A stretch of DNA of 18,030 nt from positions 1-18,030 of the forward strand of contig CAYNQI010000021.1 of the NCBI GenBank assembly GCA_964399335.1, read 5' to 3'. The position numbers and the translations under genes were made by a program. This document shows, one piece after another, positions 6,034 through 18,030 of the stretch. Positions within the stretch are counted from its first letter, which is position 1, and the number at the start of each line of letters is the position of its first letter. Origin of the DNA: an uncultured Thermoplasmata archaeon. Its GTDB lineage: Archaea; Thermoplasmatota; Thermoplasmata; Halarchaeoplasmatales; Halarchaeoplasmataceae. Under the pieces are notes generated by a model. That model searched no databases, was not told the origin of the DNA, and worked only from the letters and a program-made list of their open reading frames with translations.

Positions 6034-9000
6034 ATGGAAACCTCTCAAAGATTCAAAATTCCTTTACTAGGTAGAAAAAAAGAGATCTGCAATTTCTTAA
6101 AATATTTAAATAAAATCAAGGATACAAAAGGAGGCACGTTATCTCTAATCGGAGATGCTGGTATCGGAAAGAGTCGATTAGTTGAAAAGTTTAAACATAT
6201 TGCTGAAGAGGAGGGAATTGAAGTCTTAAAGGGAGCTGCGGATAAACAATCAAGTGATCCCTTCCACCTTTTCATTCAAGCTTTGAAAGATGAAGTTGTA
6301 GTCCCTTTTGTGCGTTTGGAGAAAACCACTTCTTTTGCTGAAATATTTGCGGTAAATGATGGGGGGATGCTACTAGCCACTGCTCTACCTGAAGATGAAG
6401 AAGAAATCGATGGCGATATCCTAGCTGGGATGCTATCAGCGGTTCAAAATTTTGTAAAAGATTCTTTCGGTGGATCCAGTTCCTCAGAGGAAGGTTTGGG
6501 TCGACTCGAATACGGTGATATGAAGATACTCATCGAACATGGAGAAGGGATCTATGTAGCTGCTGTGATTAAAGGAGAAGAACATCCCGATATGAAAAGG
6601 TCTTTGAAGCGGACTGTAAGGGATATCGAACGCGAAGATTCAGCCTTAGTCGAAGAATGGTCAGGAGGGATGGATGAGATGGAAAGTATACAGAGAAAGA
6701 TATCTCTCCTTTCCAAAACGAAATATCTTGTAAGAAGGGAACTAGATGATGTGAAACTAGAGAACGAACGTATCAAGATCGCAGATAGGATTTTAAAAAT
6801 ATTTTCAGATAAGGATGACCCGGTTGTTATAATATTAGAAGATCTTCACTGGAGTGATGAATCGTCACTCTTTGTTCTTGATTATTTGTCTAGGAGCATC
6901 CATGATAAAAAGATATTGATTTTGTGTACTCGTCGTCCCCAAGAAAGCACTCTGGCAGATAATGTAATAGAAATGCTTCAAAAGGACGGGTTTTTAACTG
7001 ATACGGTTTTGCAAAAGTTGAGGCCAGAAATTGTAGGAAGTTTGGTAGACGAACTTTTCAGCCCTAATAAATTCCCCGAATCACTCGTATATCGACTTTC
7101 AGATGAATGCAGAGGAAATCCATTTTTCATCATCGAGATGCTTAAACAGATGGAAAACGAAGGGGCTATAGGATATATTGATGGACATTACAAATTGCTA
7201 GTTGAAGATTTTACAATACCTTCAAGTTTAGAGGATGTGGTTTACAAGCGTTTAGAGCTACTCGATCCAGATTCTTTGTCTTTGATCGAATACATGTCCT
7301 GCGAGGGTGTAGAAATAGATATAGATATCCCAGAGAGTTTGAATAGACAACCTGAAATCGAAAGGCCTATCGGTTCTTTGATCAAGTCTGGAATCCTGCT
7401 TCCGTCTAAGGACTATCTGAGCTTCAGCCACGCTATATTCCGTGACGTCATATACGAAAGTTTGTCGAGATGGTGGAAGAACTCGTATCACCATCGGTTG
7501 GGGGAGTTCTATGAGAGAAAATATCTAGGCTGTATATCTGATGTATATTACGACCTTGCTCGACATTTTTCCAATACAATAGATCACACGAAAGCTCATG
7601 ACTACTCTTTTAAGGCAGGGGAGAAAGCTGAGAATGCACTGGCTCCGGAAAGGGCGATAGGATTTTATCGAAGGTCTCTAGAGGCCCTGGATAATCTTAG
7701 TGATATGGACGGTAAAGTGATACGGAGATGTGACATCTTAGAAAGAATGGGTGATATGAAAGCCCTTCTAGGTGATTTTGAAGATGCTGTGGTGGAATAC
7801 AATAAAGTGTTAGAGGATGTTAAGGATAAAACAACTAAAGCGGTATTACATCGTAAACTGGGAAACGTTTTCATGCATACTAGTGATTATGAACTAAGTT
7901 TAAGGGAATGCAATTCCGCTCTAGAAATACTCGATCAGACCGACCCAGAAGCTGCTAAGGTCAAACGTGTAAAAGGAAGGACTTATATGAGAACAGGTGA
8001 CTATGACGTTTCCCTGGACCTATTGAACCAGGCATTGGAAATCGCCAAGAATAACAGCGATGAAAAAGAGATGTCTGAGATAGCTCACAATCAGGGAACT
8101 GTACAGTGGTATAGGGGGGAATACGAAGGAGCATTAGAACGGCTCGAATTCTCCCTCAGTGTTAGAGAGAAACTTGATGATACTAGAGGTATCGCTCGGT
8201 CATTCACCAATATTGGATTGGTATACTACTCAAAGGGAGATAAAATAAAGGCTTTAGAAAACTATGAAAAGGCACTAGTATCTTTTAAAAAGATCGGAGA
8301 TAAATTAAATATAGCTACAGTCATAAATAACATGGGGATGGCTTACTTCTACCTTGGAGAACTTGATTACGCGGTAGGATGTTTTGAAGAGTGTCTTGAC
8401 ATGTTTAAGATGATTGGAGACAAAGGTAGTGTTGCTTCCTCTTTGAGCAATCTCGGTTTGGCTATGGATGATTTAGGAGATCCTGCCAAAGCCTTGGAAT
8501 ATCATCTAGATAGTTTACAAATAAAAAAAGAGATCGGTGATAAAAATGGTATGGCCACATCCTTATACAATATCGGGAAAGTCTATGTGGATGCTGGTCG
8601 ATTGGTCAAGGCAATCGAGCACTTGACCAGTGCATTAGACCTTTCAAACGAAATCGATGATTTGTTTCTATCTACTGAAATAAGATTAGATCTAACCCAT
8701 GCATACATCAAAATGGGAGAGATCGACACTTCACTACAGACAGCAATGGATGCGCTTGAGATTTCTTTGGACATAAGAAGCAGTTCTCTTGAGGGGGAGA
8801 GCAGGCGGATGCTAGGAAAAGTATACTTTAAAATGAATATGTTTGATAAAGCTACCAAAGAGTTCGATAAAGCGAAAATGATTTTTGAAAAAATCGGTGA
8901 AAAAGTTGAACTCAGTTACGTATTAGTGGATTATGGTATTCTTTTCGACAAAATGGGCAAAGATAAGAAGGCCAGCTACTACCTAAAAAAAGCTTTAGAG

Positions 9001-9075
9001 ATCCAAAAAGACCTTAATTTAGATAATGATGTGAGTGAAACACAAAACATTTTGGAAAAGATTGGAACAAGTTAG
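6034..9075 (+). CDS. STAND-class ATPase (AAA_16-like) with inserted longin-like domain and C-terminal TPR array
   Basis: Walker A GDAGIGKS (aa 40-47), Walker B IILEDLHWSD (aa 266-275), sensor ILCTRR, GNP motif (CRGNPFF), helical IPSSLEDVVYKRL, then roughly a dozen about 40-aa TPR-like repeats. Confidence 0.9.
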   Translation: METSQRFKIPLLGRKKEICNFLKYLNKIKDTKGGTLSLIGDAGIGKSRLVEKFKHIAEEEGIEVLKGAADKQSSDPFHLFIQALKDEVVVPFVRLEKTTSFAEIFAVNDGGMLLATALPEDEEEIDGDILAGMLSAVQNFVKDSFGGSSSSEEGLGRLEYGDMKILIEHGEGIYVAAVIKGEEHPDMKRSLKRTVRDIEREDSALVEEWSGGMDEMESIQRKISLLSKTKYLVRRELDDVKLENERIKIADRILKIFSDKDDPVVIILEDLHWSDESSLFVLDYLSRSIHDKKILILCTRRPQESTLADNVIEMLQKDGFLTDTVLQKLRPEIVGSLVDELFSPNKFPESLVYRLSDECRGNPFFIIEMLKQMENEGAIGYIDGHYKLLVEDFTIPSSLEDVVYKRLELLDPDSLSLIEYMSCEGVEIDIDIPESLNRQPEIERPIGSLIKSGILLPSKDYLSFSHAIFRDVIYESLSRWWKNSYHHRLGEFYERKYLGCISDVYYDLARHFSNTIDHTKAHDYSFKAGEKAENALAPERAIGFYRRSLEALDNLSDMDGKVIRRCDILERMGDMKALLGDFEDAVVEYNKVLEDVKDKTTKAVLHRKLGNVFMHTSDYELSLRECNSALEILDQTDPEAAKVKRVKGRTYMRTGDYDVSLDLLNQALEIAKNNSDEKEMSEIAHNQGTVQWYRGEYEGALERLEFSLSVREKLDDTRGIARSFTNIGLVYYSKGDKIKALENYEKALVSFKKIGDKLNIATVINNMGMAYFYLGELDYAVGCFEECLDMFKMIGDKGSVASSLSNLGLAMDDLGDPAKALEYHLDSLQIKKEIGDKNGMATSLYNIGKVYVDAGRLVKAIEHLTSALDLSNEIDDLFLSTEIRLDLTHAYIKMGEIDTSLQTAMDALEISLDIRSSSLEGESRRMLGKVYFKMNMFDKATKEFDKAKMIFEKIGEKVELSYVLVDYGILFDKMGKDKKASYYLKKALEIQKDLNLDNDVSETQNILEKIGTS
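8173..8652 (+). repeat. 120-nt periodic coding repeats (40-aa TPR units)
   Basis: In-register ATCGGAGATAAA (8293), ATTGGAGACAAA (8413) and ATCGGTGATAAA (8533) encode IGDK at exact 120-nt spacing. Confidence 0.8.
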
Positions 9076-11144
9076 AAGTTGACAGTCCAATCAACCGGAT
9101 AACTAGCATTATTGTAAATCCAGTAAGCATTTCCCGGTTCGAATTTGAAAGTGCTGGTATTTGAAACATATCCAATATTGTATTCCTCTTTTGAATCAAA
9201 ATAACCTATATTCGTTACTTCAACGGGTAGACCATTGTTTTCTATCAAAGTGCTGGGATATCCGACCATGTTCCATCCAGAGTAAAGTGTTATATTTGTG
9301 CAGTCTGGCTCTACGCCGATTATAGTGAGAGTATCCTCAGTATTCATCCTTATCCAGAGTCCCATTGTGTGATCCCATGTGTTTATATTGTTAAAATGAG
9401 CGGCTCGACCCGGTATATAACTCGCCCATCTATCGATAGAAGCATCATAATAAGTTACCTTGTCATAACTACCATCTATACCGTGAACCGGGTCGTTGAG
9501 AATAATCTCCAAGTCCATATCATAGGGGATTACCATCGGTGAGATAAAGCTCCAACCATCGGCTTCTGAATTCTGGGTGATGGTAATATTGTATGTAGTG
9601 TAGGATTTCGCTGAAACCTCTTGGCTTGGATCACTTTCTCCTAGAGTATTTTGGGCGGTTAGGAAATAGTAGTACGAATCACTTCCAATAGATGTATCGT
9701 TATATTCATGGATATCTGGAGATATTGTTTTATAATAGCTCTGACCTCCTGAAACGGTCCCTCTATATAAGAAATATTTACCTATTGGTTCACCTCCGTC
9801 ATTGGGTGGTGGGTCCCAACTGATGAAAATGTTGTTGATACCCGGTTCAGCATCGACATTGATGGGTGCTTCTGGGGGTCCTTTTGGAGTTGCTGAATCT
9901 GTATTACTAGCTGGTCCTGTGCCTCCTGCATTTTGAGCTCTAACAAAATAGTCGTAAGTTATTCCATTTAAAACGTCATCATCATTATATATTGTCGTTG
10001 GAGCGCTTACATGTACATAGTAACTTCCATCACGATAGATTCTGTAATATTCAATAGGTGCACCCCCATCATCCAAAGGCTCTTCCCATTTGAGTTCCAC
10101 ATTTGTATCATAACCACAGGCAACTAGGTTTCTTGGCTCCGACGGCGGATCTATAGACTCTGTTGGGATGACTGTTCCCCCTCTACGACTAGAAAAGGGC
10201 GTTATACTTCCTCCACCTGAATTTTGAAGGTCGTTATCGATGGATTTTTCTTCTTTATCACCAAGACCTCCACCATAACCCCAAACCGGGCCGTTAACTG
10301 GAGCGTCTAAGGTACGGAAGTTCGGCATCACCATGAACTCATATTCATAACCTGGTTTCAGGTCCTCTGCTATAAAGTACTGGGAGCCGGTGTTGATCTC
10401 ATTAGGGTTTATCTTATCATTGGCTGCCGGGATAGGTTCATCGGTGTACTCATTATTTGGATCTACTTTTGAATTGCCGATATACTTCCATTCTTCTTCC
10501 TTCGATGAACTTATGAAGATCGCATAACTTTGAAGCAGATCGTAAGTTCCTCTTCCTGTGGGTTCTAGATTGGTGTTACTACTGGTGTACTTGAAATGAG
10601 GAATCGATATATTGATCCATGTGGGACCGATAGGATCGTCGGAATATTTTTCATTTAAAACAGGTCGTGGGATGGGTTCGTACCTAACCACATGTTCATC
10701 CATGGTTGGAGGTGTTTCTTTACTTTCCGCAACAAAATTAGATGCCCAAGTATAGTTTATGTATTCATCATGTTTCTCATCGTAATGTTGATATTCAGCT
10801 AGGAACATTATGTTGTCCCCTTCCTCTGGAGACATTTTATACCACTGGTGCGGTTTTTCTCCTGGTGTAGCATCCCATCGAAATTCCTTTTCCTTTCCGA
10901 TATTGTATGTACCATCGTTGATAGCATCATTTGCACCTCTCTGACTCATCTTTGGTTGGTTGATATTAATAGCGGTAATATTTCCAGAATAAACTCCTTC
11001 CCTATGCCATACAGCGTTCCCGTCATAGCTGTCATAAGAATACCCTTGAAGATAAATTGCATAATCTTCCCCCTCTACAGTTCCACTAGGTATGGTCAGT
11101 AACAAAAGCAGTAGAACTATCATAATCGATGAAATTTTTTCCAT
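9072..11144 (-). CDS. Secreted fibronectin type III domain protein with uncharacterised N- and C-terminal domains
   Basis: Signal peptide MEKISSIMIVLLLLLLTIPSGTVEG. Two clear FN3 units (PPSEPRNL...WEEPLDDGGAPIEYYRIYR...YDYFVRAQN and PPEAPINV...WDPPPNDGGEPIGKYFLYR...YYYFLTAQN). C-terminal module with two GW(S/N)xxxP repeats. Confidence 0.88.
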   Translation of the reverse strand: MEKISSIMIVLLLLLLTIPSGTVEGEDYAIYLQGYSYDSYDGNAVWHREGVYSGNITAININQPKMSQRGANDAINDGTYNIGKEKEFRWDATPGEKPHQWYKMSPEEGDNIMFLAEYQHYDEKHDEYINYTWASNFVAESKETPPTMDEHVVRYEPIPRPVLNEKYSDDPIGPTWINISIPHFKYTSSNTNLEPTGRGTYDLLQSYAIFISSSKEEEWKYIGNSKVDPNNEYTDEPIPAANDKINPNEINTGSQYFIAEDLKPGYEYEFMVMPNFRTLDAPVNGPVWGYGGGLGDKEEKSIDNDLQNSGGGSITPFSSRRGGTVIPTESIDPPSEPRNLVACGYDTNVELKWEEPLDDGGAPIEYYRIYRDGSYYVHVSAPTTIYNDDDVLNGITYDYFVRAQNAGGTGPASNTDSATPKGPPEAPINVDAEPGINNIFISWDPPPNDGGEPIGKYFLYRGTVSGGQSYYKTISPDIHEYNDTSIGSDSYYYFLTAQNTLGESDPSQEVSAKSYTTYNITITQNSEADGWSFISPMVIPYDMDLEIILNDPVHGIDGSYDKVTYYDASIDRWASYIPGRAAHFNNINTWDHTMGLWIRMNTEDTLTIIGVEPDCTNITLYSGWNMVGYPSTLIENNGLPVEVTNIGYFDSKEEYNIGYVSNTSTFKFEPGNAYWIYNNASYPVDWTVNF

Positions 11145-17445: not shown

Positions 17446-18030
17446 CTATCTTGACCTTTTTAATTTTTTTAATTCACTTTTTGCCTTTTTAACCCAAAGG
17501 ATCAAATCCATCTTTTCAAACAAATCTAAGGCTTTTTTAAGGAATTTTTCACCCTTTAAAAACACACCATATTCGTAATAAGTCCTAGATAAATACCGTG
17601 TCTCTCCCGTATTTTTAAACACATCGATAGCATTTTCAAAATTTTGGACAGCTCTTTCCTCTACTCCAAGATTTGCAAACACCATCCCTAAAACACGGTA
17701 ACATGTCCCCTCCTCAGATTTACCATCGATATCCAAGGATATTTGAAGGGCCTTCTCTGCATATCCTTTAGCTTTATCAAACATCCCTTTCATAAGATAT
17801 ACTTCTGCAAGTCCACAGAGATCGTAAACTGATATAATATGTTCTCCGACTTTTTCAGCCATCTCTAGACTTTCCTCGTAATATCTTAAAGCTTTAGATA
17901 TATCTCCTTTATATTGGTGGATAAGTGCTATACTGTTCAAAGAATAAGTTATCCCTACCCTATCTCCGATCTCCCTTTCAATCTCTAAACTCTGGTTATG
18001 ATATTCTAATGCTTTATCGAGTTCGTAAAG
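17446..18030 (-). CDS. TPR-repeat protein, C-terminal part (5' end outside the window); paralogous to the tail of the 6034-9075 protein
   Basis: The frame stays open from 17940 to the window edge (LYELDKALEYHNQSLEIEREIGDRVGITYSLNSIA...), so the track start is not real. 40-aa TPR units are collinear with the STAND protein C-terminus. Confidence 0.85.
   Translation of the reverse strand, partial: LYELDKALEYHNQSLEIEREIGDRVGITYSLNSIALIHQYKGDISKALRYYEESLEMAEKVGEHIISVYDLCGLAEVYLMKGMFDKAKGYAEKALQISLDIDGKSEEGTCYRVLGMVFANLGVEERAVQNFENAIDVFKNTGETRYLSRTYYEYGVFLKGEKFLKKALDLFEKMDLILWVKKAKSELKKLKRSR
17457..17490 (+). terminator. Oligo-T terminator candidate for the PRC-barrel gene, inside the opposite gene
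   Basis: Four T-tracts (T5, T7, T5, T5) start 15 nt after the TAA at 17441. Confidence 0.5.

Follow-up and report, generated by a model that had tools for sequence, protein, structure and literature searches.

A predicted longin-type domain inserted in a Thermoplasmata STAND ATPase belongs to a domain family associated with Ras/Rab-like GTPases

The question raised by this locus is what a folded segment lying between the two nucleotide-binding motifs of an archaeal ATPase is, and what it does there. The locus lies in an 18,030-nucleotide stretch of DNA (the window) on contig CAYNQI010000021.1 from an uncultured Thermoplasmata archaeon, where a gene at 6034..9075 on the + strand encodes, by open reading frame (ORF) translation, a 1013-aa STAND (AAA_16) ATPase with a predicted longin-fold insert and a C-terminal array of tetratricopeptide repeats (TPRs). 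The insert (aa 96-234; 6319..6735, + strand), a domain of ~139 aa, has a longin-type fold according to AlphaFold2 models and to structural comparison with Foldseek and VIA-align, and by profile searches it is an orphan at the sequence level, outside every defined longin family. The domain family to which it belongs is strongly associated with Ras/Rab-like GTPases, both genomically and phyletically.

The ATPase framework of the protein is recognised by Pfam, with AAA_16 (PF13191) scoring 69.3 bits against a cut-off of 32.6. The match is split in two, aa 11-124 corresponding to profile positions 2-111 and the remainder resuming past the insert, while TPR_12 matches with 189 bits. The Walker A motif or P-loop, GDAGIGKS (aa 40-47; 6151..6174, + strand), contains G40, G43, G45 and K46, which are invariant among 48 homologues. 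The Walker B strand, VVIILED (aa 264-270; 6823..6843, + strand), which the model draws as a strand at 264-269 and which overlaps ILEDLHW at aa 267-273, includes the nearly invariant E269 and D270. Both motifs are conserved in the 48 homologues and agree with the STAND/AAA_16 pattern GxxxxGK[ST] plus hhhhD[DE]. Following strand 294-300 of the model, CTRRP (aa 298-302; 6925..6939, + strand) carries the invariant R301, which by its position in STAND NTPases would be a sensor-1-like arginine. The C-terminal repeat arm expected of STAND NTPases is also present, at ~aa 540-1010 (7651..9063, + strand; Pfam TPR_12, TPR_1, TPR_2 and TPR_MalT), and is presumed to be a sensor arm for ligand or protein binding. 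NCBIfam returns only partial TPR and STAND-regulator matches for the 1013-aa protein, all under cut-off. More than 300 full-length homologues carrying the insert occur in Thermoplasmata metagenome-assembled genomes, which also hold the closest relatives. The gene product is probably a cytoplasmic signal-transduction STAND ATPase, comprising an AAA_16 core, a helical arm and about twelve TPRs.

AlphaFold2 was run on an alignment of the first 340 aa of the query and 47 homologues (48 sequences), yielding a model with a predicted local distance difference test (pLDDT) score of 82 and a predicted template modelling (pTM) score of 0.60, in which the P-loop core is intact and the insert is looped out between strand 2/helix 2 and the helix preceding the Walker B strand. 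Secondary structure assignment with DSSP places strands at 96-99, 101-108 and 113-117, a helix at 127-146, strands at 157-160, 163-169 and 173-180, and helices at 185-208 and 213-228, with a closing strand at 231-234 pairing with the entry strand. The resulting order, beta-beta-alpha-beta-beta-beta-alpha-alpha, with a single helix on one sheet face and two on the opposite one, is the one expected for the longin fold. A first-pass annotation of the window, made from the letters alone, had proposed this order of elements and an intact P-loop core with a looped-out domain, both of which are seen in the models; the segment that it placed between the Walker motifs (nt 6325-6717, aa 98-228) falls inside the inserted domain, the limits of which are wider, whereas its Walker B position (aa 266-272) has to be moved to aa 264-270. 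Modelled alone from a 36-sequence alignment, the insert reaches a pLDDT of 87.4 and a pTM of 0.80.

Two AAA_16-TPR paralogues encoded on contig C8 of the same genome have a Ser/Thr-rich low-complexity linker of ~45 aa in place of the insert, and because these paralogues carry a short linker there, the domain is a true insertion into a loop of the AAA_16 family. Ordinary STAND ATPases of the AAA_16/MalT-AfsR type, these two paralogues included, share Walker A, Walker B, the invariant arginine past strand 4 and the TPR array with the present protein but contain a short linker where it has a folded domain of 139 aa. The top PDB matches of the 340-aa model in Foldseek are RuvBL1/2, in which a folded domain is likewise looped out between Walker A and Walker B and serves RuvBL partner binding; RuvBL1 and RuvBL2, however, belong to another ATPase clade and have an OB fold inserted instead of a longin, so that the analogy is one of architecture only.

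Mean identity to the query in the 48-sequence alignment is 0.54 across aa 96-234 and rises to 0.675 across aa 126-184, compared with 0.35 and 0.42 for the flanks, making the insert the best conserved part of the N-terminal region, above the ATPase core. Helix alpha-1 of the insert (aa 126-146; 6409..6471, + strand; DGDILAGMLSAVQNFVKDSFG) holds the motif that is best conserved across the entire domain family, and its residues D126, A136, Q138 and F140 are invariant among the 48 STAND homologues, presenting a candidate partner-binding face. This conservation bears on the idea that the protein is an antiviral (Avs-like) STAND sensor whose insert recognises or mimics a viral protein. The combination of AAA_16 and TPRs is a common defence architecture and the paralogues are multi-copy, dispersed and fast-diversifying; yet the insert, far from being the most variable part, is the most conserved one, no effector domain is found with Pfam, PADLOC returns generic TPR models alone, with no match in aa 1-340, and no defence-island neighbours are seen. 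An antiviral role is accordingly considered very improbable.

Structural comparison places the insert among the longins. Foldseek against the PDB returns the Sec22b longin first (E 4e-5), in line with the earlier expectation of longin matches, followed by AP-2/AP-1/AP-3 sigma, zeta/delta-COP, Mon1-Ccz1 and TRAPP longins, with MglB/Roadblock appearing only from E about 2e-3. Across 48,161 representative chains, VIA-align lists longins at all of ranks 1-16, with Z 11.8-9.6 over 118-140 residues, including the VAMP7 longin (Z 11.8, 119 aa, root-mean-square deviation 3.3), synbindin (11.4), AP-3 sigma (11.2), Sec22 (10.5), Mon1-Ccz1 (10.4) and a Lokiarchaeal Roadblock-Longin protein (10.3, 131 aa). 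The first Roadblock, MglB (Z 9.5), is aligned to model residues 8-118 without both C-terminal helices, whereas the longins span residues 10-142. The helix before strand 1, a feature separating longin from Roadblock, is absent from the insert model, and the topology is therefore assigned as longin-type within the longin/Roadblock/profilin superfamily. A helical AAA_16 insert and a PAS/GAF sensor were also considered, and both ranked low on the Pfam, Foldseek and VIA-align results.

If the insert were instead a Roadblock/LC7 (MglB-type) domain, the system would be an ordinary archaeal relative of MglA-MglB. MglB and other Roadblock structures do match at Z 8-9.5, longin and Roadblock have a common core (PMC10933270), and the genome contains five true Roadblock genes; nevertheless, those matches miss both C-terminal helices, no helix lies ahead of strand 1, and related domains that form receptor tails begin right past a transmembrane (TM) helix. 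In addition, PF03259 finds the five Roadblock genes of the genome but misses the insert, and the GTPases linked to the family are of the Ras/Rab type with a G3 aspartate (DxxG), unlike the MglA type (PMC4316618). A Roadblock identity is consequently regarded as improbable.

At the level of sequence, the Pfam families, including Longin, Sybindin, Sedlin_N, Clat_adaptor_s and Fuz_longin_1, give no match at E<=1 for aa 98-228, and no NCBIfam model matches the insert. In the ESM Atlas the insert stands among unnamed archaeal clusters, an Asgard cluster with Fuz_longin_1 at rank 14 (score 0.87) serving as a lead only. The longin identity proposed in the first-pass annotation thus holds for the fold, the top structural matches being longins over the whole domain with Roadblock lower, but does not extend to membership of a defined longin family by sequence.

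An HMMER scan with the insert alone recovers 3248 cluster representatives at E<=1e-3, of which 714 reach E<=1e-10. The domain occurs in STAND proteins of ~1000 aa, as tandem copies in proteins of 1300-2400 aa, as stand-alone proteins of 100-230 aa, in tails of multi-pass membrane proteins, and as C-terminal tails directly past the TM helix of proteins whose ectodomains are of Ig, PKD, CARDB or cadherin-like type, where it starts about 10-25 aa past that helix. The presence of such tails bears out the statement in the first-pass annotation that similar segments form cytoplasmic tails of membrane-anchored Thermoplasmata proteins. The family is marked by a motif on alpha-1 and the next hairpin, D-x-D-I-x-x-G-M-L-x-A-V-Q-x-F-V-x-D-S-F, then L-x-Y-G and later W-x-G; the alpha-1 motif is common to STAND inserts, receptor tails and stand-alone forms. 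The taxonomic survey covered the phylum Thermoplasmatota, and as far as searched the family, which is without a database model, is restricted to that phylum. A dedicated model for the domain would be worthwhile, since the only label that thousands of proteins now carry is "tetratricopeptide repeat protein" or "hypothetical".

The association of this family with small GTPases is visible first in gene adjacency. In genome G001, 4/10 GTPases lie <=500 bp from a domain gene, one such locus being an operon in which an 8-TM longin-tail protein is encoded with two GTPases. Adjoining pairs account for 7/27 GTPases in G031, in three loci (circular-shift p = 0.003), for 2/5 in G042 (circular-shift p = 0.004), for 5/12 in G010 and for 3/10 in G055, and in several families 25-45% of GTPase genes adjoin a domain gene. 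The simplest layout is that of G022, in which the sole GTPase (179 aa) is directly upstream of the sole domain gene, encoding a 1352-aa receptor-like protein with predicted TM segments (locus L141, 1509-6125; p about 0.005, an analytic estimate). The ten genomes sampled from family f8 contain exactly one GTPase in 10/10 cases and exactly one domain gene in 9/10. GTPases beside longin-like genes have canonical G1, G2, G4 and G5 motifs and are of the Ras/Rab type. Within the GTPase pairs found at such loci, some members are without the G3 catalytic Gln (IMGEKD, IMGESG or IIGSKG versus DxxGQ), which hints that the catalytic residue may be supplied in trans.

Phyletic co-occurrence follows the same direction. 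Of 121 genomes in a class sample, 87 have a GTPase and 83 the domain; both are near-absent in the same families (0/12, 0-1/11, 0/9 and 0/1) and present in all other families. Among 151 genomes sampled from the phylum, all at least 85% complete, both are present in 25 and neither in 124; one has a weak domain match only and one a weak GTPase match only. The pattern recurs in many families.

The source genome (1.57 Mb, 212 contigs, 80% complete) illustrates both the expansion of the family and its proximity to GTPase genes. It holds five insert-bearing STAND copies (contigs C21, C48, two on C88, and C117), one receptor tail (C15), one derivative devoid of the P-loop (C69) and five Ras-family GTPases (PF00071, E 1e-30 to 1e-34), which are located on C15 (15290-15874 and 16030-16506), C69 (2525-3013 and 3684-4157) and C187 (477-1076). 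The C69 locus (L020, 48-4178) encodes the derivative, a protein of 788 aa that lacks Walker A and consists of a longin-like domain (aa 64-217), a core remnant and TPRs. Its gene adjoins two Ras-like GTPase genes, lying head to head with one of 277 aa, after which comes a convergent one of 282 aa. Both of these GTPases carry C-terminal extensions of ~100 aa without a Pfam match. In the C15 cluster (locus L021, 2356-11245), two Ras-like GTPases are encoded together with a DUF835 protein, a beta-propeller/PKD protein that has a signal peptide, and a 1477-aa longin-tailed protein in which a signal peptide, an Ig/cadherin-like ectodomain and a TM helix precede the longin-like tail. The stand-alone Roadblock/LC7 (PF03259) genes of this genome encode proteins of 120-139 aa and are located on contigs C7, C1, C19, C121 and C44.

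The head-to-head arrangement at C69 is the same as that in G130 and G145, from two other families of the phylum, where an intact STAND of 890-901 aa, with Walker A, insert and TPRs, lies head to head with a 335-aa TPR-Ras fusion containing three or four TPRs and a Ras domain (loci L137, 1234-4983, and L138, 1-3868). A midpoint-rooted tree of the domain, which has several long branches, unites the STAND inserts in a single clade (support 99/90) where the G130/G145 copies are basal, and puts the C69 type in a second one. Most simply, this can be read as one ancient insertion into a STAND linked to a GTPase, after which the gene expanded into dispersed paralogues that would act on GTPases in trans.

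Bringing these observations to the function of the insert, the most likely role, judged with somewhat better than even confidence, is that it docks a small GTPase and couples this docking to the ATP switch. The insert would dock one of the Ras/Rab-like GTPases of the genome, probably via the conserved alpha-1 face, in the manner of the longin/Roadblock platforms of Mon1-Ccz1, TRAPP and MglB. An alpha-1 face is the GTPase platform in the longin/Roadblock dimers of MglB-MglA, TRAPP-Ypt1 and Mon1-Ccz1-Ypt7. Because the ends of the insert are anchored beside Walker A and Walker B, docking would be coupled to an ATP-driven conformational or oligomeric switch, with two options for its direction: the GTP-bound GTPase may license STAND activation, or the ATP state may turn the insert into a platform resembling a guanine nucleotide exchange factor or a GTPase-activating protein. 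Longin-tailed membrane receptors encoded beside GTPases could feed the same GTPases from outside the cell, and the TPR arm may bind a further ligand or client.

Several observations weigh against the GTPase-docking proposal. The orientation of the insert on the core is uncertain in the 340-aa model (pTM 0.60), and a profile search against PDB sequences gives nothing significant, with TRAPPC1 at E=2 only, leaving the insert without a sequence relation to any solved longin or Roadblock. No GTPase gene is found in the 18-kb window. A neighbourhood survey based on the 48-sequence alignment, which covered STAND-type loci only (77 loci from 32 genomes), finds a Ras-like GTPase within 10 kb of canonical STAND-longin genes at 3/77 loci and no conserved neighbour among the 77; the recurrent neighbour clusters are antisense ORFs, ABC transporter parts and the secreted FN3 protein described below. 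Conversely, no longin-like domain is found within the 1.5-kb flanks of the 30 best-scoring GTPase loci of the class, so that the link covers only a subset of GTPases, and the idea of an adjacent partner for every GTPase was dropped on this result. Co-occurrence, moreover, follows phylogeny, and the genome counts far exceed the number of independent events, since related genomes are not independent. The tie to small GTPases put forward in the first-pass annotation is therefore sustained for the domain family, by adjacency and phyletic co-occurrence, but not for this gene or most of its canonical relatives.

The same genomic data speak to a different function, in which the insert is a dimerisation handle, pairing with membrane receptors through their longin-like tails, or with further STAND copies, and recruiting the protein to the membrane without contacting a GTPase. 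Longin/Roadblock domains are typically homo- or heterodimers (PMC10933270), the same domain occurs directly past the TM helix in receptor-like proteins, and many paralogues of both kinds are present per genome. The minimal systems of f8, however, consist of one receptor tail and one GTPase with no second domain gene, and the alpha-1 motif common to all contexts fits one conserved type of partner; dimerisation without GTPase contact is thus a minority reading, judged unlikely. The two functions do not exclude each other, and either may hold alongside the other. Because the minimal systems pair one receptor tail with one GTPase, the GTPase rather than a second longin protein is taken as the primary partner of the domain.

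A further alternative dispenses with a protein partner altogether, the insert being a sensor of a small molecule or lipid, or acting as no more than a structural spacer. Profilin-like alpha/beta sandwiches can bind ligands, and the polar residues D126, Q138, E183 and H184 are invariant in the STAND subfamily. H169 and H184 are nevertheless not conserved outside that subfamily, the top structural matches include no PAS, GAF or other ligand-binding fold, and the association with GTPases is left unexplained, making this alternative highly doubtful. With GTPase docking retained as the preferred function, a broader proposal can be stated tentatively, at less than even confidence: a eukaryote-style network may operate in non-Asgard Thermoplasmatota, in which longin-tailed receptors and longin-insert, NLR-like STANDs dock Ras/Rab-like GTPases and the ATP and GTP switches are coupled through one domain, the partnership of longin and GTPase being older or wider among archaea than the Asgard-eukaryote lineage.

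Comparison with known systems indicates what is shared and what is particular to this one. The eukaryotic and Asgard longin platforms (Mon1-Ccz1/Ypt7, TRAPP Bet5-Trs23/Ypt1, AP sigma/mu N-domains, Sec22b/VAMP7 and the Lokiarchaeal Roadblock-Longin protein, PDB 8YQG) resemble the insert in predicted fold and element order, with Z 10-11.8 over ~120-135 residues, and their association with Ras/Rab-like GTPases is found here too, as gene adjacency and co-occurrence. They differ in that a sequence relation to the insert is undetectable, in that the host here belongs to the Thermoplasmata, and in that the domain here lies inside a P-loop ATPase core or in a receptor tail. MglB-MglA of Myxococcus and Thermus likewise sets a prokaryotic small GTPase gene beside a partner of the profilin/longin superfamily, and the structures are similar (Z about 9.5); MglB, however, has an N-terminal helix and lacks the two C-terminal helices, and the GTPases here are of the Ras/Rab (Rup) type, which has no known MglB coupling (Table 1, PMC4316618). 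The GTPases found here are of the kind already surveyed as Rup or archaeal Rab-like GTPases (Wuichet and Sogaard-Andersen 2015, PMC4316618; Surkont and Pereira-Leal 2016, PMC4915359). These surveys record a single Rab-like gene in a Thermoplasmatales archaeon and in Aciduliprofundum and report no partner for archaeal Rup GTPases.

The literature searched describes longin domains, and links between them and GTPases, from eukaryotes and Asgard archaea; one preprint describes in general terms an association of profilin-longin-like domains with GTPases across life, and another finds many longin/Roadblock structural clusters common to other prokaryotes. No description of the present architecture was found in literature on longin with Thermoplasmatota, STAND or NLR, in agreement with the earlier suggestion of an undescribed system. 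The modules are known; the arrangement and the lineage are new, and the partner domain, its receptor-tail and STAND contexts and the phylum-wide co-occurrence are newly described. Control of small GTPases by longin/Roadblock domains has been regarded as a distinguishing trait of Asgard archaea and of membrane traffic in eukaryotes, and the present family offers a candidate partner for archaeal Ras/Rab-like (Rup) GTPases in another phylum, in the form of receptor tails and of an insert in an NLR-like ATPase. If binding is confirmed, the protein would connect a STAND/NLR-type ATPase to a small GTPase in a prokaryote, and the systems of one GTPase and one receptor would be suited to working out how the platform operates, with a bearing on when the longin-GTPase pairing arose.

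Within the window, the genes upstream of the STAND gene are ordinary archaeal ones, encoding TBP, a geranylgeranyl reductase, a Trm5-like methyltransferase and a TatD-like hydrolase. Downstream and convergent with it, a gene at 9072-11144 on the - strand encodes a secreted 690-aa FN3-domain protein, the stop regions of the two genes overlapping by 4 nt. A homologous FN3 protein adjoins the closest STAND orthologues in 8 genomes, and this proximity may be local synteny of the closest orthologues only. At the end of the contig, 17446..18030 on the - strand encodes the TPR-containing C-terminus of a second, paralogous protein whose gene runs off the contig; because it is 32% identical to the STAND C-terminus over 195 aa (E 4e-26), it is probably another paralogue of the family.

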